A DNA stretch of 64,000 bases. It comes from Candidatus Poribacteria bacterium (GTDB taxonomy: Bacteria; Poribacteria; WGA-4E; JAJDTR01). The stretch's first letter is position 1. Each line of letters begins with the position of its first letter. The notes under the pieces are model-generated. The model was not told the origin of the DNA and searched no databases. It saw only the letters and a list, made by a program, of their open reading frames with translations. Below, one piece after another: positions 3,700-55,805 of the stretch. The position numbers and the translations under genes were made by a program. The stretch is from positions 2,921,281 to 2,985,280 of the forward strand of contig OZ242354.1 of the NCBI GenBank assembly GCA_965208765.1, read 5' to 3'.

Positions 3700-4311
3700 A
3701 TGAAAATCGGAGTGCTGGCTTCCGGCAGCGGAAGCAATCTCCAGACCTTAATCGATCAACTCCACTACGACGAATCCTGTGAAATTGAAATCTCGGTCGT
3801 CATCAGCGATCGAAAGAAAGCCTACGCACTCACCCGCGCAAAGAAAGCTGGAATCCCTTCCTATGTTGTAAAAGCCCGAGATTTCCCCGACCGTCACGCT
3901 TTTGACGAGCGAATCTCCGAACTGCTTGAAACGCACGCAGTAGAACTGATCGTCTTAGCCGGTTTCATGAAGTTATTTCAACCCGCATTTGTTCAGAAAT
4001 ACAGAAACCGAATCCTTAATATCCATCCGGCGCTGCTACCGGCTTTCCCCGGCGCGCATCCGGTGGCGGACACCGTCGCCTACGGCGCAAAGGTGAGTGG
4101 AGTAACCGTCCATTTTGTGGATGAGGGGATGGACACCGGACCAATCATCGCGCAAAAGTCGGTGCCGGTGTTCGATAAAGACGACGAGGATAGCCTTCAT
4201 GCGCGTCTCCAAGTGGAGGAGCACAAACTGTATCCGACCGTGGTCAAGTGGTATGCGGACAACAGAATTAACTTCTCGGGCAGGAAAGTGATTGTGAAGG
4301 GGTCGGATTAG
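3700..4311 (+). CDS. purN: Phosphoribosylglycinamide formyltransferase PurN
   Basis: MKIGVLASGSGSNLQ and HPALLPAFPG plus the formyl transferase fold motifs. The start was set at the MKIGVL ATG. Confidence 0.85.
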   Translation: MKIGVLASGSGSNLQTLIDQLHYDESCEIEISVVISDRKKAYALTRAKKAGIPSYVVKARDFPDRHAFDERISELLETHAVELIVLAGFMKLFQPAFVQKYRNRILNIHPALLPAFPGAHPVADTVAYGAKVSGVTVHFVDEGMDTGPIIAQKSVPVFDKDDEDSLHARLQVEEHKLYPTVVKWYADNRINFSGRKVIVKGSD

Positions 4312-4312
4312 G

Positions 4313-5212
4313 ATGATTGCCATCTCGACGATGTGGAACGCGCTGAAGCAACCTGACGGTGCGGCGCTGATTGACGAACTCAATAATTTGGGCTTCGGTG
4401 CGGTTGAACTCAGCCGGCATCTGATGCGCGATCAGATTGAACAGCTTAAACCCTATCTGGGACGAACCAAGCCCTGCTCCATTCACAATTTTTGCCCCAT
4501 CTTGCCCGACCACCCACAATCCGATTCCGAAAGCGACCCGATCCACCTTTCCAGCCTTGACATATCCGAACGAAAACAGGCTGTGCGCTGGACGGTGCGG
4601 ACGATGGAGATGGCTGCCGACCTTGAAATCCCAATCGTGGTGCTCCACCTCGGCGAGGTGGACACATACGACCGGTCTTATCTGATGTATGATTTCTACG
4701 AATACGGCGAGCGCGAGTTTGAGGCGTTCAGCGACAAGGTGTCGGAGGCGATGGATTGGAGGGAGCGAAAGCAGGCAAAACATCAGGACGTGGTTCTATT
4801 CAGCTTGGATGAACTCAATGAACTCGCTTTGCGGATGGATCTCTACCTCGCCATTGAGAATCGTCCGCGCTACTATCAAATCCCGAACTTCGACGAGGTC
4901 GAGATGTTCTTCGACGCGTTTGCCGGCAGCAACATGCGGTATTGGCATGATGTTGGTCATGCTATCTTGCAAGAACGTATCGGGCTTTGTTGGTCCAACC
5001 GTTGGCTTGAAGCGTACAAAGATCATCTCATCGGCGTCAACCTGCACGACCTCAAAGACCTTGAGGAATATCACCCGCCCGGTTTCGGCGACATTGACTT
5101 TGACGACGTGTTCGCAGAACTCCCCGCCGATGTACTGAAAGTGTTGGAAGTTCGCCACGGCACGGCAGAGGAGGTGGTGGAAGCCAGGGAGTTTGTCTCT
5201 AGCCATACCTAA
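4313..5212 (+). CDS. Sugar phosphate isomerase/epimerase (xylose isomerase-like TIM barrel)
   Basis: The ATG overlaps the purN stop. AP-endonuclease-2/xylose isomerase-like TIM-barrel motifs (LGFGAVEL, LAIENRP, WHDVGHA). Confidence 0.6.
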   Translation: MIAISTMWNALKQPDGAALIDELNNLGFGAVELSRHLMRDQIEQLKPYLGRTKPCSIHNFCPILPDHPQSDSESDPIHLSSLDISERKQAVRWTVRTMEMAADLEIPIVVLHLGEVDTYDRSYLMYDFYEYGEREFEAFSDKVSEAMDWRERKQAKHQDVVLFSLDELNELALRMDLYLAIENRPRYYQIPNFDEVEMFFDAFAGSNMRYWHDVGHAILQERIGLCWSNRWLEAYKDHLIGVNLHDLKDLEEYHPPGFGDIDFDDVFAELPADVLKVLEVRHGTAEEVVEAREFVSSHT

Positions 5213-46064: not shown

Positions 46065-47237
46065 GTGGAGATAATCCTCATGGCTGAATACATGAAAGGG
46101 ATTAATCCCGCTATAATCAAGTGGGCAAGAGAACGCTCGGGATACACGCTTGAGGAAATCGCCGATTCCCTCAACAAGGACACTGAAACTATCTCCAACT
46201 GGGAGTCCGGGAGTTCTGCGCCGACCTATGCCCAGCTTGAAAAACTGGCTGACAAATGCAAACGCCCTATCGCCCTGTTTTTCTTCCCTGAAGTTCCCGA
46301 AGAGCCTGATTTGGTCAATCAGCTTGCGCTGCGAAGTTCAGAAATCGAGGCACTAAGCCCCAACATCCGCTTGCTGTTACGTCATGCTGCTGCCAGACAG
46401 ATTTCATTGATGGAACTGAATATGGGCGTGAACCCTGTCGAAACGAGAATCTTTCGCGATCTTCATGCCCGACTTGACGATTCCGTGACAGTATTAGCCC
46501 ACCAAGCCCGGGAATACTTGGAAGTCAGCGTTGAAACACAAGCAAGTTGGAAATCCTCGACAGAGGCGCTCGGGATCTGGCGAAACCGCATTGAGGACAA
46601 AGGTATCTTCGTTTTCAAGGACGCATTCCAGGATGATTTCGTTGATGGGTTTTCGCTCGTCCATGACCAGTTTCCTGTTATCTATCTGAACAATAGTCGG
46701 CCCCACGTCAGACAAATCTTCTCACTCTTTCATGAGTTGGCTCACCTGTTGCTCCGGCGTAACGGCATTACACGCGGCGTCAAAATTGGTGAGGAGAAAA
46801 TTGAGCGGTTTTGCAACCGATTTGCCGCTGAATTCTTGGTACCGTCGTCCGATTTGGAAACGAGGCTCGATTTTCCAGATTACGATGATGCCGCAATTTG
46901 GAAATTGGCACGGCACTATAAGGTTAGCCGTCCGGTTATTCTGCTCAAACTGATCGATCGACACATTCTGGAACCGACTGACTATGAGCGGATGACAAAA
47001 AAATGGAAAGAGGCGCAGGAATCCAAGCTTGAACAAGCTGCCGTAAGCAACAAACCTGGAGGAGGAGACTATTACAACACCCGCGCAGTGTACCTAGGAT
47101 ACAGATTCCTGGAGCTCGCCTTCAGCAGATATCATCAAGGTGGATGTTCTATTGAAGAACTCGCAGGGCATCTGAACGTTAAGGTAAAAAATTTGCCTGG
47201 GCTGGAAGACCGTCTATTGAGGAAAGCAACCGGCTAA
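46065..47237 (+). CDS. XRE-family HTH fused to an ImmA/IrrE-family zinc metallopeptidase (COG2856-like)
   Basis: N-terminal HTH (IIKWARERSGYTLEEIADSL) and the metallopeptidase HEXXH (FHELAHLLL). The stop overlaps the downstream ATG. Confidence 0.75.
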   Translation: MEIILMAEYMKGINPAIIKWARERSGYTLEEIADSLNKDTETISNWESGSSAPTYAQLEKLADKCKRPIALFFFPEVPEEPDLVNQLALRSSEIEALSPNIRLLLRHAAARQISLMELNMGVNPVETRIFRDLHARLDDSVTVLAHQAREYLEVSVETQASWKSSTEALGIWRNRIEDKGIFVFKDAFQDDFVDGFSLVHDQFPVIYLNNSRPHVRQIFSLFHELAHLLLRRNGITRGVKIGEEKIERFCNRFAAEFLVPSSDLETRLDFPDYDDAAIWKLARHYKVSRPVILLKLIDRHILEPTDYERMTKKWKEAQESKLEQAAVSNKPGGGDYYNTRAVYLGYRFLELAFSRYHQGGCSIEELAGHLNVKVKNLPGLEDRLLRKATG

Positions 47238-47704
47238 TGGCTTACGTATTTGACACCAACAGTTTTAGGGTGCTCGGCAACTACTATCCCGATCAATTCC
47301 CGACTTTTTGGAGACAATTCAATCAGGCGGTAATAGATGGGAAGATAACCTCCGTTAGGGAGGCTCACAGAGAATTAGAATCCCAGGTACAGCCTCCTTT
47401 GCTTGATTGGGTAAAAGACCATAAAAGTATTTTCACATCGCCCACCACAACGGAGACACGATTCATCACCGATATTTTCTCCATTAAGCATTTTCAAACA
47501 CTAGTGAGCGTGCAAAGCCGCTTAGAAGGTCATCCGTGCGCCGATCCGTTTATCATTGCAAAAGCAGAGTTCATAGAAGGATGCGTTGTCACAGAAGAAA
47601 CGTTGAAACCCAATGCCGCGAAAATCCCGAATGTTTGTGAGCGCTTTGAGATTGACTGTACAAATCTCCAAGGGTTCATGGAAAGAGAGGGTTGGACTTT
47701 CTAA
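47237..47704 (+). CDS. DUF4411 (PIN-like) domain protein, the common partner of HTH-ImmA proteins
   Basis: MAYVFDTNSFRVLGNYYP has a PIN-like N-terminal acidic motif. 155 aa, translationally coupled to the upstream gene (TAATG). Confidence 0.65.
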   Translation: MAYVFDTNSFRVLGNYYPDQFPTFWRQFNQAVIDGKITSVREAHRELESQVQPPLLDWVKDHKSIFTSPTTTETRFITDIFSIKHFQTLVSVQSRLEGHPCADPFIIAKAEFIEGCVVTEETLKPNAAKIPNVCERFEIDCTNLQGFMEREGWTF

Positions 47705-47768
47705 TCTCGCTCGGAATCAAAAATCACCAGCTACTTAATGCTAACAGCTTGGAGGAAGAGAAACACCT

Positions 47769-49499
47769 ATGGCACGAAACAGCCGCACCTCCCAATCCCC
47801 CGAAGTCCAAGACTACCGCCACGACGACGCCACCCGACGAAACAACCCGCCCGCCGCCATCGCTTCCCAAGGAAGAATCCGCGAAACACCCAAGCAGGAA
47901 TACGCCTACAACCCCCACCTGCCGCCCATTCTCCGATTCGACGACACCGGCAACGCCGACCAAATCCCCGAACTCCTCGAAAAGGCAAAGAACGGACTCT
48001 CCGACGACGAAATCAAAATCCTAGCCGACGCCTTGAAAGACCGCACCCCCTGGCTCGAATGGGCGGGCAAACAGGAGGCGAAATCCTTCGCCGTAGATCC
48101 GGTGGCGCTGCATATCCACGAACGCTTGAGCGCAAAAGCTATCTTGAGAACCGCGGCGCGCCAAGATGTTCAGCGGGAGCTATTTGCTGATCCGCAGCAG
48201 GAATACCACGAAGCCGTGCGGTTCTACCAGCACGACGTGGATTGGTCGAACCGCCTCATCTTGGGCGATAGCCTCACCGTGATGACTTCCCTCGCGCACC
48301 GCGAGGACCTTGCCGGCAAGGTGCAGATGATTTACATCGACCCGCCCTACGGCATCAACTTCCGATCAAACTTTCAGCCCACCGTCTTTCAGCGTGATGT
48401 GAAAGACAAAGCGAGCGACCTAACCCGCGAACGAGAACAGATTAAAGCCTACCGTGACACCTGGACGCTCGGCGTCCACTCCTACCTCGCCTACCTGCGC
48501 GACCGTCTGATAGTTGCTAGAGACCTCCTGACCGACAGCGGTAGCATCTTCGTGCAGATTGGTGATGAGAATGTCCATCGCGTGCGATGTCTGATGGACG
48601 AGGTATTTGGGAGCGAGAATTTTGTTCGAGAAATCGTTTTCACGAAGACAACAGGACTTGGACAAGTATTGCTCAACAGCGTCAACGATTATGTGCTTTG
48701 GTACGCCAAGAACCGTGAGGCTGTGAAGTACCGACAGGTCTATTTTGAGAAAGTAGCCGGTACAGCGGGTGCCAGCAGGTATAAAAATAGTGATGATAAT
48801 GGGAGGTTGTATTCTACTACCGATCTGAGATCCCAAACTGGTACAGAACGATCACGATTCCCGATTATGTTTCAAGACAAACCTTACACCGTCTCCGGGA
48901 CACGAGGATGGTCAACAAACGAGATTGGGGTGGAACGAATTGTCGCCTCAGAACGTGTCGTTGTTGAAGGAAATACCCTTAGATTCAAGAGATACTTAGA
49001 TGATTATCCTGTACTACCAACAAATAATGTATGGGCAGATGTCGGTGGGATTCAAAGCCGCACTGATCCTAAGATATATGTCGTCCAGACAACTAACAAA
49101 GTTATCGAACGCTGTCTCCTCATGACCACCGACCCCGGCGATCTCGTCCTCGATCCCACTTGTGGCGCCGGCACCACCGCCTACGTCGCGGAGGGTTGGG
49201 GCAGAAGGTGGATAACCATTGACACCAGCCGTGTAGCGATTGCCCTGGCACGTCAACGCCTCTTGACGGGCAGTTTCGACTATTTCGAACTCCAAGACGA
49301 ATCGAATGGTGTCGCGGGCGGATTCATCAATAAAACCGTCCCGCACATCACACTGAGAAGCATCGCCCAAAACACCGCGCTCGACCCCATTTTCGCGCAA
49401 CATGAACCCATTCTCCAAGACAAGTTGGAGACGCTGAACCGCGCTTTGGGGGCGGTAACGCCACAGATTCGGACGGCGCTGGGAACTTCCCGCAAGTGA
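47769..49499 (+). CDS. mod: Type III restriction-modification Mod subunit (beta-class N6-adenine DNA methyltransferase)
   Basis: Motif IV, MIYIDPPYGINF, lies N-terminal to motif I, LDPTCGAGTTAYVA. 576 aa, with a Type III res gene downstream. Confidence 0.8.
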   Translation: MARNSRTSQSPEVQDYRHDDATRRNNPPAAIASQGRIRETPKQEYAYNPHLPPILRFDDTGNADQIPELLEKAKNGLSDDEIKILADALKDRTPWLEWAGKQEAKSFAVDPVALHIHERLSAKAILRTAARQDVQRELFADPQQEYHEAVRFYQHDVDWSNRLILGDSLTVMTSLAHREDLAGKVQMIYIDPPYGINFRSNFQPTVFQRDVKDKASDLTREREQIKAYRDTWTLGVHSYLAYLRDRLIVARDLLTDSGSIFVQIGDENVHRVRCLMDEVFGSENFVREIVFTKTTGLGQVLLNSVNDYVLWYAKNREAVKYRQVYFEKVAGTAGASRYKNSDDNGRLYSTTDLRSQTGTERSRFPIMFQDKPYTVSGTRGWSTNEIGVERIVASERVVVEGNTLRFKRYLDDYPVLPTNNVWADVGGIQSRTDPKIYVVQTTNKVIERCLLMTTDPGDLVLDPTCGAGTTAYVAEGWGRRWITIDTSRVAIALARQRLLTGSFDYFELQDESNGVAGGFINKTVPHITLRSIAQNTALDPIFAQHEPILQDKLETLNRALGAVTPQIRTALGTSRK

Positions 49500-49515
49500 G
49501 TGGAAGGAGTGGGAG

Positions 49516-50598
49516 GTGCCGTTTGATACCGACCCCGACTGGCCTTCAGAGTTGAAGGGTGCCTTGACAGATTACCGCGAGGCGTGGCGGGAAAAGATGG
49601 ACGAGGTGAACGAATGTATCGCCGCCGCCTCCGACGGCGAGGAGTTGGTCGATCAGCCCGAGGTGGACCGAAAGAAACTGAGGGTGAGCGGTCCCTTCAG
49701 CGTGGAGGCGGTGCAACCCGCCGAAGAATCGCTCTATGACGATTCACCGATTGGGGGTGAACCTGACGAGGAACTTGATACATTCGAGTCCGAAGGAAGC
49801 GAATCGGCAAACGCCGAAGCCTACCTTGACGGCATGATTCGTCTGCTCCGAAACGATGGCGTCCGCTTTCCCGATGACTGCACCATGAAATTCGCTAGGC
49901 TTGACCCGCTTGAAGCCGGTGTTCTCCATGCAGAAGGCAAATGGACAGATGACGCCGAAGATCGGCTTATTGCCGTAGTGTTCGGACCTCAGCACGGTCC
50001 GGTGACGGCGATGCAGGTTGAGGAGTGCCTGCCGATTGCATCGCGCCGCGGCTATGACGACTTGGTTTTTGCGGGTTTCGGTTTCGATGGCGCCGCCCAA
50101 GCCGCCATTCAGGACGATCCGAATCCCAGAGTCCGGGTGCACATGGCACACATCAACCCCGACGTAACAATGGGCAGCTTGCTCAAAGAGACCCCCACCA
50201 GTCAACTCTTTACCGTGTTCGGCGAACCCCGCACAAAACTTGAAAAGAGGGAGGATGGTGAGTATATCGTCGAGATGGAGGGTGTCGATGTCTACAATCC
50301 CGTTGACAACATGGTGACCTCCGAAGGGAGCGACAGGGTGGCGGCATGGTTCATTGACTCCGACTACGACGGCAGAACCTTCTGCATCACCCAAGCCTTC
50401 TTTCCCGACAAGAAAGCCTGGAGCAAAATTGCCCGCGCCCTGAAAGGCGTCATTGACGAGGATCGGTTTGAGAGTTTCAGCGGCACCACATCCTTGCCGT
50501 TTCCCGCAGGCGAACACCGGCGTGTTGCCGTTAAGGTCATCGACCCCCGCGGAAACGAGGTCATGCGGGTGCACAACCTCGGTGAGCAGGGATACTGA
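49516..50598 (+). CDS. Hypothetical acidic protein inside the RM locus, function unknown
   Basis: 360 aa, GTG start with a GGAGG SD 5 nt upstream, and a Glu/Asp-rich N-terminal region. No motif recognised. It lies 17 nt after the mod stop. Confidence 0.45.
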   Translation: MPFDTDPDWPSELKGALTDYREAWREKMDEVNECIAAASDGEELVDQPEVDRKKLRVSGPFSVEAVQPAEESLYDDSPIGGEPDEELDTFESEGSESANAEAYLDGMIRLLRNDGVRFPDDCTMKFARLDPLEAGVLHAEGKWTDDAEDRLIAVVFGPQHGPVTAMQVEECLPIASRRGYDDLVFAGFGFDGAAQAAIQDDPNPRVRVHMAHINPDVTMGSLLKETPTSQLFTVFGEPRTKLEKREDGEYIVEMEGVDVYNPVDNMVTSEGSDRVAAWFIDSDYDGRTFCITQAFFPDKKAWSKIARALKGVIDEDRFESFSGTTSLPFPAGEHRRVAVKVIDPRGNEVMRVHNLGEQGY

Positions 50599-50621
50599 TG
50601 TTGAGGCGTGGCAGGAGGTAG

Positions 50622-50771
50622 ATGATGGACAAGAACCAAGACATCTTTGACGGATTCACTGTCAGCCTGTTCCTTGATGAATACGGCGATTATCTTGCGC
50701 ATTTCGTCGAACTCCCCAGTGTCTCACGCGGTAAGAAATGGGCTCAGAGTCTAGACAATCAATCCTCTTGA
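50622..50771 (+). pseudogene. N-terminal remnant of a hicB antitoxin gene
   Basis: MMDKNQDIFDGFTVSLFLDEYGDYLAHFVELPSVS is near-identical at the nucleotide level, over about 45 nt, to the start of the intact hicB at 51085. It then diverges and stops. Confidence 0.5.
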
Positions 50772-50849
50772 GATCAAAAATGCGGAGGCATTAGTTGCGA
50801 GAGTCAAGGTACGCTTGATTATCCTCACGTAACAGGATAGAATTATGGC

Positions 50850-51092
50850 ATGAATCGAAGAGATGCTTTGCTTGACAAGGCTAGGCGGAACCCAAATGGA
50901 TTGCAATTCAGAGAGTTTGAGCAACTCATGCGTCAATGCGAGTGGACACAACGCCGCCAGCGTGGTAGCCACCGGGCTTGGTATTCGCCTAAAGGATACA
51001 GGCTCATGGTCCAACCCAAGCGATCAATGGCTAAGGCTTACCAAGTTCGTCAATTCCTCATAAAATATAATCAGGAGGCAGAAGATGGCTAA
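50850..51092 (+). CDS. hicA: HicA-family toxin (YcfA-like mRNA interferase)
   Basis: 80 aa. EFEQLMRQCEWTQRRQRGSHRAWYSPKGYRLMVQPKRS is the HicA dsRBD-like signature. Confidence 0.75.
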   Translation: MNRRDALLDKARRNPNGLQFREFEQLMRQCEWTQRRQRGSHRAWYSPKGYRLMVQPKRSMAKAYQVRQFLIKYNQEAEDG

Positions 51093-51456
51093 GAACCATG
51101 ATGATTTTGATGGATTCGCAATTAACGTTTTTCTTGACGAAGATGGCGATTATCTTGCGCATTTCGTCGAACTCCCCAATGTCTCGGCTTTCGGACCAAC
51201 ACCCGCTCAAGCACTGGTTGAATTGAAAACAGCGTGGGAATTGATGAAAGAATGTTACCAGGAAGATGGTGTCCCTGTCCCTAAAGCACCGTCGCGAGAA
51301 GGATACGAGGGGCCGTTCAACGTTCCCGTTGATGCCCGACTTTATCATGAATTAGCAAAAGAAGCGGCACGAGCGGAGATGAGCCTTTACGCATTTGTAG
51401 CGGAAAAACTAGCGAAACCGACTGCCCGCGACTCAAATAGCGCGAGAGTAACATAA
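51085..51456 (+). CDS. hicB: HicB-family antitoxin
   Basis: FDGFAINVFLDEDGDYLAHFVELPNVSAFGPTPAQALVELK is the HicB RNaseH-like fold, with a C-terminal RHH-like DNA-binding tail. It overlaps hicA by 8 nt. Confidence 0.75.
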   Translation: MAKNHDDFDGFAINVFLDEDGDYLAHFVELPNVSAFGPTPAQALVELKTAWELMKECYQEDGVPVPKAPSREGYEGPFNVPVDARLYHELAKEAARAEMSLYAFVAEKLAKPTARDSNSARVT

Positions 51457-52508
51457 TGCCTGAAAAAAAATCTCATGACCTACATGATTTCATGCGCCAA
51501 CTAAGCCAGGAGATGGCTGCAGAATACGACCGCATCCAAAAGCGTGCACCCGAAGACCCAGGGACCGCTGGCGACCAAGGCGAGGCAAATTGGGCTGAAC
51601 TGTTACGTGGATGGCTCCCTCGCACCTATGAGGTTGTTACAAAGGGACGCATTATTAGCGCAGATGGGCGCACAAGTCCACAGGTTGACGTTTTAGTTCT
51701 AAAGGATGTATATCCAAAGAAATTGTTAGACAAGAAACACTACCTTGCTGCAGGAGTTGCCGCTGCCTTTGAGTGCAAAACCACTCTAAAATCTGCACAT
51801 ATTGCGGAGGCAGTACAAACCTGTGTGGAAATTAAGAACTTGTATCCAGTTCGTGAAGGATCGCCCTACAAAGAGTTGCACGCCCCCATTGTCTATGGGT
51901 TGTTAGCGCATTCTCATTCTTGGAAGGGGCCTAACTCAACGCCTGAAGAGAATATTCTGCAGAACCTGAGAGGCTCCGACGGGCTCTTCGTCACACATCC
52001 GCGTTTAAGTCTTGATATGCTATGCGTTGCCGACCTTGGAGCATGGACATTGTCAAAGATGTCGCCCAATCCACTGCTGGTTCTCGAAGACGAATCGTTG
52101 ATCTCCCAAGAAACGCCACCGTGCAGACCAGTGTGGAGTGCGTATATGGAACATACAACCTGCGTTGAAAATCAAGTCGACTATTTCACTCCGATTGGTG
52201 TTCTGATTTCCTATCTGTCAAAACTGATTGCATGGGAAGCCCCAACGTTGCGAAATCTCGTAGATTATTATCTGGCTGCACCCATTGGGGGATCCAGTAG
52301 GGGAGTGCCCCGCAAGTGGGATAGTTCAATATATAGTTCAGGGCTTCGACGCGCTGCTCAAAAGCAGACATTCGTAACTGGTGAAGCCAAGACATGGGAT
52401 GAATGGAACATGGTTTTTGGCCCCGGATTAGTTAAACATTTGAAATTTCAACTAAACGTACCGGAATCAAACCGCAGCGAACGCGAAATCAACACAGAAA
52501 CAGGATAA
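51456..52508 (+). CDS. Putative PD-(D/E)xK-fold nuclease with an uncharacterised C-terminal domain of about 230 aa, translationally coupled to hicB
   Basis: A helix carrying E (GEANWAELL), a beta-strand QVDVLVLKD and FECKT together form the E...hD...ExK arrangement. The ATG overlaps the hicB TAA. Confidence 0.45.
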   Translation: MPEKKSHDLHDFMRQLSQEMAAEYDRIQKRAPEDPGTAGDQGEANWAELLRGWLPRTYEVVTKGRIISADGRTSPQVDVLVLKDVYPKKLLDKKHYLAAGVAAAFECKTTLKSAHIAEAVQTCVEIKNLYPVREGSPYKELHAPIVYGLLAHSHSWKGPNSTPEENILQNLRGSDGLFVTHPRLSLDMLCVADLGAWTLSKMSPNPLLVLEDESLISQETPPCRPVWSAYMEHTTCVENQVDYFTPIGVLISYLSKLIAWEAPTLRNLVDYYLAAPIGGSSRGVPRKWDSSIYSSGLRRAAQKQTFVTGEAKTWDEWNMVFGPGLVKHLKFQLNVPESNRSEREINTETG

Positions 52509-52828
52509 CTTGGCAGAGAATAATGCGGCAGAAACCCGCGAACTGTAGCTGCAAGGTCCGCCGGTCCTCTGTTGGTGTGCACTACACTACTATTGTGCTC
52601 GCGTGCTTCGGAATACCTTAGTCTGAATCTCGGATTACTCGGACGTCACGGAATAAAAACCGATAGAACCCTTGAACGAAAAACCGGTGTAATCGGGTAA
52701 TCCGCGTGGGTCCAGGTCTCAGACAATCTTTGTGTGGGTATCCATCTTGAACAAGGGCAACAAACGCAACGTCATCACATCTTTCGAGACAGTGTTAACG
52801 ACATTGCGTCGACAAATCAAGCTCCCTC

Positions 52829-55805
52829 ATGAACCTAAACCAACTCGACATCCCAATCCAACCCGTTGAACAGCCCATCCTGTGCAGCCCCTACGCAGAA
52901 CCGAGCGCCCACTGGGTCTACGACACCGAGACCGGCGAAGCCATCCGGCAACCCGGACGCCGTGACGCCGGCTACTGGTACAAAACCGAGCGCACGGGCA
53001 GCGGGCAACTTCAGATTTTCCGCGAAGAGGAATGGGACGATTTGCCTTTGGTGAATAGACTACGCGACGATGTCCGAAGATGGAGAGAATCGAACTACCG
53101 AAACGCCACCAATGTAACGCGTGAACTCCTGAACCATTGGAGGCGCGAAGATAGGGAGCGGCGGCTGTTTTTCTGCCAGCTTGAAGCCGTTGAGACGGTT
53201 ATTTGGCTTGCCGAGATTCGCAGCGGGGGCAAACGCGTTAGTTTTATCCCAAATTCACTGATGACGATCGAAACAAGCTGGCTGATCCACCCGACGACAC
53301 TGACCTTCCCGAACTCATTCGCTACGGGTGCAAGATGGCGACCGGCAGCGGCAAAACCGTGGTGATGGCGATGCTGATTGCGTGGGCGTTCTGCAACCGC
53401 GGCAAAGTGCCCTCCGACGAGCGCTTTCCGAAAGCCGCGCTAGTCGTCTGCCCGAACCTGACCATCAAAGAACGGCTTCTGGTGCTCCGCCCGAATCGTC
53501 GGACAACTACTACGATGCGTTTGAACTCATTCCGACGAAACTCCGCCCGCTGCTCAACGGCGGCAAGGTGCTGGTGACGAACTGGCATCAATTCGCCTTG
53601 GAATCCCCGCAGGCGGAGGGCGGCTCCACCTACTCCGTCGTGAATAAAGGCGAGGAGACGCCGGATGCATTTGCGCAGCGTGTACTGGGCGAACTCTATG
53701 ACCGCGCGCCAATCATGGTGCTCAACGATGAGGGGCACCACGCCTACCGCCCTGCGCCGGTTGAGGAACAGCTATCCGCCGAGGAGCAGAATGAACGCCA
53801 AGATGCCACCGTTTGGATTAGCGGTCTGGACCGGATAAACTCCGCCTGCGGCGTCCGCTTCTGCGTCGATCTCTCCGCCACGCCCTTCTATATACACGGC
53901 AGCGGCCACCCGGAAGGTACCCCCTTCCCTTGGCTCGTCAGCGATTTCGGATTGGTGGACGCCATTGAGAGCGGCATCACCAAGATTCCGCGCTTGCCCG
54001 TCAGCGACACCACCGGTCGTCCCGAACCCAAATACTTCCGTCTGTGGCGCGCGATTAACGACCAAATCCTACCGGCTGATCGATTGCCAGGTAAGGCGAA
54101 GAAGCCCAAACCGGAAGCCGTGTACCGTGAAGCCGAGGACGCGCTAAACACTCTCGCCAGCCAGTGGGTGGAACGCTTTGGCTACATCCGGCAGGCATCC
54201 GATGCCAAAGACAAAACGCCGCCCGTCATGATTATCGTCTGCGACAATACCGACATTGCCGAACATTTCTTCCGAAAAATCTCCGGCGAGGTGGAAGTTG
54301 AAGACCTTGCAGAAAACGGTGGGAAGAGAAAAAAGAAAAAGGCGACCAAGACGGCATACGGACAAGGTACGGTGTTTCCCGACTTGCTGTCGAACGAACG
54401 GGACGTGCTGCGAACCCTGAGAATTGACAGCAAGATGTTGGCTGACGCGGAAAGCGACGAAACGGGAAAGAACAAAGCCCAAGCTGCCGAGGATTTGCGT
54501 CAGATTGTGGCGACGATTGGAAAGCCCGGCAAACCCGGCGAACAGGTGCGATGCGTCGTGTCCGTGGCGATGTTGAACGAAGGCTGGGACGCCAACAACG
54601 TCACGCATATCCTCGGACTGCGAGCCTTCACCAGCCAACTCCTCTGTGAACAGGTGGTTGGCAGGGGTTTGCGGCGCATGAACTACACCCCCGATCCGGA
54701 AACCGGCTTGTTGACCGAAGAATATGTCGATGTGTACGGTATCCCGTTTTCCGTCATCCCGTTCAAAGGGCGCCGCCCCGGCGCATCTGCGCCTGACCCT
54801 CCGAAGAATCATTTACGCGCCATGCCCGAACGGAAGGACTACGAGATACGTTTTCCGGTTGTGGAGGGGTACGTCTTTGCGCTCCGAAAGAACGAAATCA
54901 AGGCGGACATCAAGTCAATGGAGCCGCTCTTCGTTGAACCTGAACAGACACCCACTGCCGTTTTCGTCAAACCCGCTGTCGGCTACGAAACCGGTAATCC
55001 TTCCGCCTTGGGTCCCGGACAATTCGAAGAGCAAAATCGCCAAGAATATTACAGGACGACGCACATTCAAGCCATCAAGTTCGAGATTGCGCGGCGAATT
55101 GTCCTGAATTTGGTCGGCGGGGCCAATTTTCCACGCGATAGTAGGAGTGATCCCAAGCTTCGGTTTCAATCCCGACACCGTCTATTCCCTCAAGTCTACA
55201 GATTGGTTGATGCTTATGTCGAAATAAAAGTCGACTTTCGCGAGTGTAATCCGTGCGAGATTGGTCAAGAAAAATACACCAATCGCATAGTGGAACGCCT
55301 GACGGCGGCAATCCAACCTAACGAAGCAGAAGGTGAAACCCCGCTGCTGCCCATCCGGAATCGTTACAAACCCATCGGCACATCGGCGGAAGTGGATTTC
55401 ATGACTACCCGATCCTGCCACGGCACGGAACGCAGCCAAATCAACCAAGTCGTTCTGGATACCGAGAGGTGGGAACGTTCATCCTGCTTCCGTCTGGAGC
55501 AATCCGAGGTTGTTGACTACTATGTCCGCAACGACCACCTTGGATTCGGCATTCCATACGAATACACCGACGTGTCCCACCACTTTGAGCCCGATTTTAT
55601 TGTCCGACTCAAGAACGATGTCAACCTAATCGTGGAAATTAAGGGTCACGAAACCGATCAGGAACTTGCCAAGTATGCAGGCGCGGAACGATGGGTGTCC
55701 GCCGTCAACAACTGGAATGAGCTTGGAAAATGGGATTTCCACGTGTGCCGCGACCCGCAGCTGCTGGAGCGTGAGCTAATGTACATCGTCCAATCGGGCG
55801 AGTGA
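52829..55805 (+). pseudogene. res: Type III restriction enzyme Res subunit (SF2 helicase plus C-terminal endonuclease), disrupted by two -1 frameshifts
   Basis: Three consecutive frames: 52829-53365, 53335-53577 (Walker A, MATGSGKT) and 53328-55805 (DEGH box, helicase motifs, C-terminal PD-ExK IVEIKGHE). The frame changes occur at TTTTATCCCAAATT (about 53240-53262) and CCGCCCGAA (about 53485-53495). Confidence 0.8.

Follow-up and report, generated by a model that had tools for sequence, protein, structure and literature searches.

In classical Type III restriction-modification (R-M) systems the mod and res genes are adjacent. NucC, an effector of CBASS and type III CRISPR systems (PDB 6p7p, 6q1h, 7zgv), is a proven defence enzyme, in which the N-terminal helix alpha0 mediates an activating trimer-trimer contact and residues R53, Y81, T226 and V227 belong to the cA3 pocket (bioRxiv 10.1101/694703). 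Damona, found in the chromosomal integron of Vibrio cholerae, is a single-gene anti-phage system of the DUF6602 type (bioRxiv 10.1101/2024.07.02.601686). The locus described here lies in a 64,000-nucleotide stretch of DNA from a Candidatus Poribacteria bacterium (the window). In this locus a gene for a NucC-like nuclease, designated X, directly follows a hicA-hicB pair, and the whole hicB'-hicA-hicB-X region sits inside an R-M operon, with mod on one side and res on the other (Table 1).

Table 1. Features of the defence islet, in positions of the window
Feature	Positions	Strand	Basis
HTH + ImmA/IrrE (Peptidase_M78) protein	46065-47237	+	Pfam Peptidase_M78 2.1e-21, HTH_3 4e-12; context
DUF4411 protein, pairs with the ImmA/IrrE gene	47237-47704	+	Pfam DUF4411 7.9e-29; context
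mod, Type III-like N6/N4 DNA methyltransferase, two ORFs (47769-49499, 49516-50598)	47769-50598	+	Pfam N6_N4_Mtase 6.6e-32
hicB' remnant: ribosome-binding site and first ~35 codons of an older hicB	50612-50725	+	ORF 50622-50771, 49 aa
hicA, HicA-family toxin, 80 aa	50850-51092	+	Pfam HicA_toxin
hicB, divergent HicB-family antitoxin, 123 aa	51085-51456	+	ortholog profile versus E. coli HicB structures
X, stand-alone NucC-like PD-(D/E)xK endonuclease (DUF6602), 350 aa	51456-52508	+	fold, motif, Pfam
res, Type III-like restriction helicase-nuclease, in three frames	52829-55805	+	intact orthologs, PF04851 ResIII

The islet is about 10 kb long and begins with the ImmA/IrrE gene, which is also found 5' of mod in loci L001, L003, L004, L084 and L156. 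A sequence-only reading of the window had described an 8-nt overlap between hicA and hicB, and an overlap of the hicB stop with the X start in the form TAATG. Both overlaps are present, the TAA of hicB and the ATG of X sharing one base. On the plus strand no terminator-like site was found from the start of hicA to the stop of X, and the promoter-like site upstream of hicA (50815-50843) is not above chance, with 5 such sites found versus 2.8 ± 1.7 expected.

The assignment of X to the PD-(D/E)xK nucleases, made in the same reading, was borne out by structure prediction. An AF2 model obtained with 99 diverse representatives (pLDDT 91) has the PD-(D/E)xK core alpha/beta fold, which is restriction-endonuclease-like and specifically NucC-like; a model from 40 close homologs (pLDDT 47.5) was set aside. 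The three motifs that had been picked out by inspection fall on the expected helix and strands of the model: E43 of GEANW is within helix 35-53, D78 of QVDVL is at the start of strand 79-82, and E106 and K108 of FECK are within strand 101-111. Across 99 diverse homologs (34-71% identity) D78, E106 and K108 never vary and the conservation of E43 reaches at least 90%; hhalign aligned the three invariant residues with D73, E104 and K106 of NucC. X matches Pfam DUF6602 over residues 33-129 with 87.2 bits (cut-off 27, E=8.1e-25), and its best profile match is the CRISPR-associated PD_DExK profile of PADLOC. NCBIfam gave no match for hicA, hicB or X, and no record matched the exact X protein of the window. 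The nuclease domain (residues ~1-205) is followed by a family-specific C-terminal domain (~205-325) and a disordered tail (326-350); these last 25 amino acids are an unstructured extension specific to the window, which the homologs lack. Within the PD-(D/E)xK superfamily, sequence and predicted fold place X in the NucC-like (DUF6602) branch, with E43, D78, E106 and K108 as catalytic residues, and we take it to be an autonomous DNA endonuclease.

If the similarity extended to activation, X would be an orphan cyclic-oligonucleotide effector, switched on like NucC by cA3 coming from a CBASS or type III CRISPR system at another place in the genome. We regard this as quite improbable. The adenine-stacking Tyr81 of NucC is aligned by hhalign with the nearly invariant Y86 of X, and the best profile match is CRISPR-associated (see above), but Y86 is the only residue of the cA3 pocket that is kept. 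R53 is aligned with T57, at a position not conserved in the X family, and the alignment of NucC to X ends at residue 191; T226 and V227 have no counterpart, the NucC C-terminal segment that contains them being replaced in X by a different domain of ~120 amino acids. The gate loop of X is 6-7 residues shorter, and in the hhalign alignment the latch residues H136 and Y141 correspond to V132 and to a gap, respectively, although this detail of the latch is uncertain, as HMMER placed Y138 of X near Y141. No cyclase recurs beside X in 84 X-bearing loci, and Pfam scans of the immediate neighbours of X gave no cyclase or Cas family among the recurrent matches; in the window X is flanked by hicB and res. 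The reading of X as a canonical NucC was therefore rejected, with most of the cA3-pocket features absent and a different C-terminal domain. The X family has kept the catalytic core of NucC, but most of the cA3 pocket is gone and the C-terminal domain is a newly acquired one; its control must therefore differ from that of the CBASS/CRISPR effector. How stand-alone NucC-like nucleases are controlled is a concrete question for defence-system biochemistry.

The X family comprises 1664 representative clusters at 50% identity with an E-value limit of 1e-3. At least 435 clusters remain at E≤1e-30 and define a family of stand-alone NucC-like nucleases across phyla. Nearly all members of the X family are 300-335 amino acids long (~320 aa). 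In 68 X loci from other phyla no Mod, Res, HicA or HicB neighbour was found, nor any recurrent or conserved neighbour family, and HMM searches detected no HicB within 3 kb. Plasmids carry seven copies that are nearly full length, each covering at least 80% of X; a 5.4-kb Psychrobacter plasmid carries X and five genes, encoding RepM, a RelB/DinJ-family antitoxin, a MobV relaxase and two hypothetical proteins. Relatives with 60-64% identity occur in Nitrosomonas, Lysobacter and Limnobacter with the R-M context absent, and in one Poribacteria locus (L011) X is kept where both mod and res are absent. A search of 50,697 phage records yielded no X homolog. X thus belongs to a large, horizontally mobile family of usually single genes, plasmids included. 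By analogy with Damona and NucC, its most likely role would be that of a single-gene anti-phage or anti-plasmid effector, cutting DNA after triggering.

The R-M genes flanking the cargo are both interrupted in the window. Intact mod orthologs (~980 aa) match it in two frames, 3 and 1, which meet at 49480-49487, reflecting a frameshift and a deletion of ~21 amino acids near 49480. Intact res orthologs (990-1000 aa, PF04851 ResIII) match it in frames 2, 1 and 3, the frameshifts being at ~53242-53251 and ~53490-53496, and the Walker A motif MATGSGKT is in the middle piece. These frameshifts may mean that the islet is decaying, or they may be indel errors of the assembly. A PD-(D/E)xK-like motif, PDF...EIK, can be read by eye at the C terminus of Res.

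The order mod-X-res on the same strand was found in 19 loci, as would be expected if X served the Type III-like Mod-Res system as an auxiliary nuclease subunit and mod-X-res were a three-gene R-M variant. Several observations make such a role very improbable. X was absent, and other cargo present, in all four sampled Mod-Res loci whose Res is 71-76% identical. X occurs without Mod and Res in the 68 other loci, on plasmids and in L011. The spacing between X and res varies, with other genes interposed, and the GC content of the hicB'-to-X segment (0.47-0.49) differs from that of mod and res (0.55-0.61). Moreover, Res seems, by eye, to have a PD-(D/E)xK-like motif of its own. On these grounds X was rejected as an obligate R-M subunit. 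Three of the four X-less loci still contain hicB, which abuts res in L158 and L159 and a 388-aa membrane protein in L156; the 75-aa hicB' of L161 also abuts res. Because hicB is also found directly before res or a membrane-protein gene in loci that lack X, it seems to reside in the R-M operon and to be no dedicated partner of X. In a neighbour-joining tree the X-adjacent hicBs are not monophyletic. A Type III-like mod-res operon with a variable cargo slot and a recurrent hicB, as found in these sponge-associated Poribacteria, is an unusual organisation for a defence islet.

The hicA product matches Pfam HicA_toxin (PF07927; 6.6e-07) with 29.8 bits, above the cut-off of 27, and contains a GSH motif. 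A profile built from ten hicB orthologs matches 6hpb and 6u0i, two structures of E. coli HicB, at E=0.0013; Pfam found HicB in 5 (best 0.0018) and UPF0150 in 4 of the ten orthologs, all below threshold. The protein has a putative N-terminal HicB fold and a C-terminal RHH-like region, whose match to the Pfam HicB model is weak and below threshold. HicAB loci had been taken to be normally bicistronic, and this holds for relatives outside the R-M slot, which are plain hicA-hicB pairs. Among metagenomic loci a full hicA is upstream of the hicB relative in 39 of 57, which gives the HicB assignment strong support from context, and X is downstream of it in only 2 of 41, the remaining 39 being without X. 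The hicAB of the window is not a self-contained two-gene operon, as the third ORF overlaps the hicB stop. The second hicB copy, the remnant upstream of hicA, had escaped the sequence-only reading, as had the mod-res setting of the trio, the frameshifts in mod and res, and the terminal extension of X. Over its 114 nt hicB' is 81% identical to 51072-51185, so that hicB' and the 5' part of the intact hicB make up a direct repeat; its identity to the 5' part of the only hicB copy in L004 and L054 is 85-87%. The layout hicB'-hicA-hicB is also present in L075, and a full hicB-hicA-hicB in L089.

The arrangement hicA-hicB-X occurs in six distinct loci (the window, L075, L005, L084, L125/126 and L161/162), and it had been proposed to form a dedicated three-component module. 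As a toxin-antitoxin (TA) or abortive-infection device, HicB would neutralise both HicA (an RNase) and X (a DNase), and loss of the labile HicB on infection would free both. The 8-nt and 1-nt overlaps linking the three ORFs fit this scheme, and so do two in-frame HicB::X fusions (P0020 and P0063), which are diverged (80% identical to each other), have hicA upstream in both cases, and are present in three assemblies, short-read ones included. Since the activating trimer-trimer contact of NucC is mediated by helix alpha0, a HicB at the N terminus of X could, by analogy, plausibly block assembly. However, X is intact without an upstream hicB in five Poribacteria loci and in all 68 loci from other phyla. 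The hicA gene is present in only 6 of the 19 X-bearing R-M loci and missing in 13, the HicB subfamily is without X in 39 of 41 loci, and in loci lacking X hicB is found equally 5' of a membrane-protein gene or of res. In addition, all co-occurrences derive from one orthologous locus in one lineage and therefore are not independent events. These data make the tripartite module unlikely and the case for a new three-component toxin system weak. What stands of the proposal is the local co-occurrence, whereas its generality does not: outside one lineage the hicA-hicB-X synteny is absent, with X and hicAB occurring separately. That X homologs never co-occur with hicAB, an outcome the sequence-only reading had named as fatal to the module, is true of the 68 loci from other phyla and untrue of the Poribacteria-type loci.

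In 12 of the 19 related loci of the lineage, hicB precedes X at a distance of at most 180 nt, usually with a gap of 0-5 nt. This closeness, together with the two fusions, suggests more than accidental adjacency and makes a local regulatory coupling of hicB and X plausible. Gating of the expression or activity of X by HicB is thus a plausible, if weaker, alternative. In one version, which we consider doubtful, HicB has been recruited as a removable brake that, free or fused to the N-terminal helix of X, holds the NucC-like nuclease (possibly Res too) inactive until infection or stress destroys HicB. If true, this would be a cyclic-nucleotide-independent switch for a NucC-type enzyme and, with HicA, a tripartite abortive-infection module combining RNase and DNase. 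The HicB::X fusions, in which an antitoxin domain is tethered to a DNase, are a case open to testing.

HicB could also act as a controller similar to the C proteins of R-M systems, that is, as an RHH repressor placed before nuclease genes (X, res) whose expression it delays or limits, with hicA as an optional passenger. This role would agree with the presence of hicB in most Mod-Res slots irrespective of X, directly abutting X in most of the 12 hicB-bearing loci and in others res or a membrane protein, and with the weak match of its C-terminal region to the Pfam HicB RHH model. Furthermore, hicA is often absent, thus HicB cannot act only as a HicA antitoxin. On the other hand, TA loci commonly leave orphan antitoxins behind as they decay, the RHH assignment falls short of the Pfam threshold, and res and X occur without hicB in several loci (L003, L006, L009, L015, L160). 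A search for a HicB operator gave no convincing site, the only candidates being a palindrome of 10 nt within hicA and, across the hicA/hicB junction, an inverted repeat of 13 nt. We therefore judge the controller role to be rather unlikely, though less so than the brake or the tripartite module.

Across genomes the three modules, X, hicAB and mod-res, occur independently of each other, and X and hicAB meet only in Poribacteria-type genomes, in the variable slot between mod and res. The locus is probably a composite of independent modules and not a dedicated three-part system. In such a composite X would have landed in a variable mod/res cargo slot that also holds a resident hicB, sometimes with hicA. 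An incoming hicA-hicB unit may have broken the older hicB, leaving hicB' behind and yielding hicB'-hicA-hicB-X. The three intact ORFs are probably carried on one transcript, with the translation of X probably coupled to that of hicB, and HicB probably represses this hicA-hicB-X transcript through its putative RHH domain. If HicB represses the shared transcript, the output of X would follow HicB levels.

Compared with NucC, X has the same P-G-T-x-G-D-x-x-E-x-x-W helix motif and the NucC-specific fold, both proteins fall under Pfam DUF6602, and the catalytic motif is IDx30EAK in NucC and VDx27ECK in X. X is ~80-110 amino acids longer, with a different C-terminal domain, and whereas NucC, a homotrimer that turns into a hexamer when activated, is encoded beside a CD-NTase or in a type III CRISPR locus, X was never so placed in the loci examined. 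Damona, compared by description only, shares with X the DUF6602 domain, matches to the Cas PD_DExK and CBASS small-endonuclease profiles, and the character of a stand-alone gene on mobile elements; unlike the X of the window, it has not been reported with hicAB or within an R-M operon. As in type II TA systems of the HicAB type, hicA is upstream of hicB and overlaps it, and the HicA domain is above the Pfam threshold. In contrast to them, a third gene overlaps the hicB stop in the window, two relatives fuse HicB to the nuclease in frame, and in related R-M-slot loci hicB often persists without hicA. As in Type III R-M systems, mod is 5' of res on one strand, and Res is of the helicase type with a C-terminal PDF...EIK, but the two genes, adjacent in the classical systems, are separated in the Poribacteria slot by 1-5 kb of variable cargo. 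Finally, R-M systems with a C protein have a small DNA-binding protein directly 5' of the nuclease gene, as HicB putatively is here; the C protein is of the HTH type, whereas the small protein of this locus is HicB-like (RHH), with a putative regulatory role.

The genes hicA and hicB and the 350-aa ORF that follows them (X) had been described in the sequence-only reading as a tri-cistronic unit, and the coordinates, overlaps and lengths it assigned to the three genes were all correct when compared with the ORF map and the raw sequence. The hicA product passed the Pfam HicA_toxin threshold (29.8 bits vs 27). HicB is divergent: a Pfam search yielded no match at E<=0.01, a profile made from ten orthologs matched E. 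coli HicB structures at E=0.0013, and half of the orthologs had sub-threshold Pfam HicB or UPF0150 matches. In a metagenome scan comprising 67 loci, 57 extended far enough upstream to be scored for hicA, and 39 of these had a full cognate hicA before the relative of this hicB; X followed in 2 of the 41 loci with >=600 nt downstream, both times in the same mod...res context. Judged by these sequence relationships we accept the gene as a HicB, and the two frequencies show that it usually serves as the antitoxin in a plain two-gene hicAB pair.

Features of the islet around hicA, hicB and X (mod and res, Type III-like methyltransferase and restriction helicase-nuclease genes; hicB', truncated older copy of hicB)
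Feature	Position	Strand	Description
Islet	46065-55805		~10 kb; ImmA/IrrE, DUF4411, mod, hicB', hicA, hicB, X, res
HTH-ImmA/IrrE (M78 peptidase) and DUF4411 genes	46065-47704		upstream of mod; start and stop overlapping; pair conserved in several related loci
mod	47769-50598		frameshift and ~21-aa deletion near 49480
hicB'	50612-50725		114 nt (ORF 50622-50771); ribosome-binding site and first ~35 codons, just past mod stop
hicA	50850-51092	+	80 aa
hicB	51085-51456	+	123 aa; 8-nt overlap with hicA
X	51456-52508	+	350 aa; ATG shares one base with hicB stop (TAATG)
X tail, residues 326-350	52431-52508	+	25 aa, VKHLKFQLNVPESNRSEREINTETG; predicted disordered
res	52829-55805		two frameshifts, ~53242-53251 and ~53490-53496, giving three frames

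X had been taken for a putative PD-(D/E)xK nuclease on the basis of three motifs. It matched Pfam DUF6602 at 8e-25, the PADLOC CRISPR-associated PD_DExK profile at 5.8e-24 and two PADLOC NucC profiles, and a profile of its homologs matched solved NucC structures at 2e-13 to 1e-9. The structure prediction and structural search proposed for X were carried out: the AlphaFold model, made from an alignment of 99 diverse representatives, had a pLDDT of 91.3 and a pTM of 0.89, and Foldseek agreed with a NucC-like assignment. The three motifs fit the catalytic helix and strands of the model, with E43 (the Glu of GEANW) in helix 35-53, D78 (QVDVL) at strand 79-82, and E106 and K108 (FECK) in strand 101-111. 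D78, E106 and K108 are invariant in the 99 sequences (34-71% identity) and align with D73, E104 and K106 of NucC. The profile, model and residue matches thus confirm the PD-(D/E)xK call and refine it: X is a NucC-like nuclease. Its last 25 residues form a low-confidence tail, which is absent from homologs and may have arisen through loss of a stop codon or through an indel close to the usual end.

The X family is large: clustering at 90% identity gives more than 2000 clusters, and the 50%-identity library contains 1664 representatives at E<=1e-3 and 435 under the stricter limit of E<=1e-30. Almost all are 300-335 aa long. The neighbourhood of X was inspected in 80 genome loci. In 68 of these, from many phyla, none of Mod, Res, HicA or HicB was found beside X, and these 68 loci shared no recurrent neighbour family, the immediate neighbours being mutually unrelated. 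HMMs built from 62 HicB and 43 HicA sequences located no HicB closer than 3 kb to X except in Poribacteria-type loci. Nitrosomonas, Lysobacter and Limnobacter have relatives with 60-64% identity, whose contexts are unrelated, and seven plasmids carry near-full-length copies (>=80% of X covered). One of these, the 5445-bp Psychrobacter plasmid pP43BP2, carries an X-family gene at 1612-2607 and five other genes (RepM, a RelB/DinJ-family antitoxin, MobV relaxase and two hypothetical proteins); the presence of this gene on such a tiny mobilisable plasmid fits a self-sufficient role in exclusion or defence. The plasmid copies, the unrelated contexts and the lack of hicAB neighbours show that X is a self-contained, mobile gene. 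Synteny of hicA-hicB-X does exist elsewhere, but in the mod-res loci of one lineage only, and not in the 68 other loci.

X was found together with hicB or mod/res in 19 loci, all of them versions of the window's locus, from Poribacteria or unclassified sponge-type MAGs. An intact hicB lies <=180 nt upstream of X in 12 of them (with hicA present too in 6); two have a degraded hicB, and in five X is intact without an upstream hicB. L011, a Poribacteria locus, has X at 4194-5144 but neither mod nor res. X is flanked there by an AAA_15/DUF3696-type ATPase gene and by the 778-aa gene that elsewhere comes after res, which suggests that X stayed in place when the neighbouring R-M genes were deleted. 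X was absent from all four sampled Mod-Res loci with Res of 71-76% identity, where the slot between the two genes contained a 456-aa protein, a 388-aa membrane/coiled-coil protein, a Uma2 nuclease and small ORFs. In three of the four hicB was still in place, directly next to res or the membrane protein, and one had hicA as well. In the X-less loci L158 (7642-7995) and L159 (7643-8020) hicB directly precedes or overlaps res, the position occupied by controller (C) proteins in other R-M systems.

In Poribacteria-type genomes (L156-L160, L001-L020, L054) mod and res are always separated by 1-5 kb of cargo that varies from locus to locus, including X, hicB (alone or together with hicA), a ~390-aa membrane/coiled-coil protein with a signal peptide, a ~460-aa protein without Pfam match and a Uma2 nuclease. 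In a neighbour-joining tree the hicB genes of the slot form one clade, with X-adjacent copies mixed among res-adjacent ones. In the window, which has housekeeping genes on both sides of the islet, the GC content of the hicB'-to-X segment is 0.47-0.49 as opposed to 0.55-0.61 in mod and res. The ImmA/IrrE and DUF4411 pair (0.46-0.50) is also below mod and res, like the hicAB-X segment. The mod-res operon of this lineage thus reads as having a variable cargo slot, with hicB as an old resident and X as one alternative cargo among several. For an R-M operon, such an internal site of gene exchange is unusual. The orthologs of mod and res are all intact (~980-1000 aa). In the window, the R-M system may be decaying with hicAB-X left intact, or the assembly may contain indel errors, as several related loci also show broken genes.

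The truncated hicB' and the start of the intact hicB form a 114-nt direct repeat (81% identity) that brackets hicA; with the only hicB copy of L004 and of L054, hicB' shares 85-87% identity. The order hicB'-hicA-hicB-X recurs in L075, in L089 a complete hicB copy comes before hicA-hicB, and L161 has hicA and a hicB::X fusion followed by a 75-aa hicB' overlapping the res start. The repeat and these layouts therefore indicate that an incoming hicA-hicB unit recombined at the resident hicB, and hicB' looks like the scar of this event. Repeated hicB copies probably promote cargo exchange.

Two X-family representatives, P0020 and P0063, are in-frame HicB::X fusions of 434 aa, with 80% gapless identity and a common junction, QKLA[G/E]QTASEEK. 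They lie in L084 (8001-9305), L161 (855-2159) and L162 (439-1743). Because a long-read contig, a TARA short-read scaffold and a Logan assembly all contain such fusions, an assembly artefact is excluded. In every fusion locus hicA, missed by the gene caller, lies upstream. Two other family members, P0202 (548 aa) and P0213 (538 aa), have an unrelated ~230-aa N-terminal extension, a further add-on at this end of the nuclease. An essential antitoxin role of HicB for X is disfavoured, X being intact without hicB in many loci; the fusions and the occurrence of hicB before nuclease genes hint at a secondary coupling. The three-component system suggested earlier is only partly supported: hicAB, X and R-M are separable across genomes, as modules meeting in one lineage-specific slot.

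In the window hicAB and X probably share a transcript, and X translation is probably coupled to that of hicB; HicB autoregulation would then also set X levels. No terminator-like site interrupts the + strand from the start of hicA to the stop of X, and the promoter-like match before hicA was not above chance. X is most likely a Mg-dependent DNA endonuclease using E43, D78, E106 and K108. It probably acts as a single-gene defence or exclusion effector, judging from NucC, from the DUF6602 single-gene defence system Damona (bioRxiv 10.1101/2024.07.02.601686) and from the habit of X as a plasmid or island gene. Activation of NucC involves a trimer-trimer contact made by its N-terminal helix alpha0 (bioRxiv 10.1101/694703); by analogy, one may speculate that a HicB moiety at the N terminus of X interferes with NucC-type assembly. 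A canonical NucC was ruled out, as the cA3 contacts are mostly gone, the gate loop is shorter and the C-terminal domain differs. Only one of the four reported cA3-contacting residues of NucC is kept (Y81, Y86 in X); R53 aligns with T57, and the alignment ends short of T226 and V227. The gate loop of X is 6-7 residues shorter than in NucC, without the H136/Y141 latch; residues ~205-325 make up a domain specific to the family, for which no informative structural match was obtained. We class X as a stand-alone NucC-like DUF6602 nuclease, a variant of a known nuclease type.
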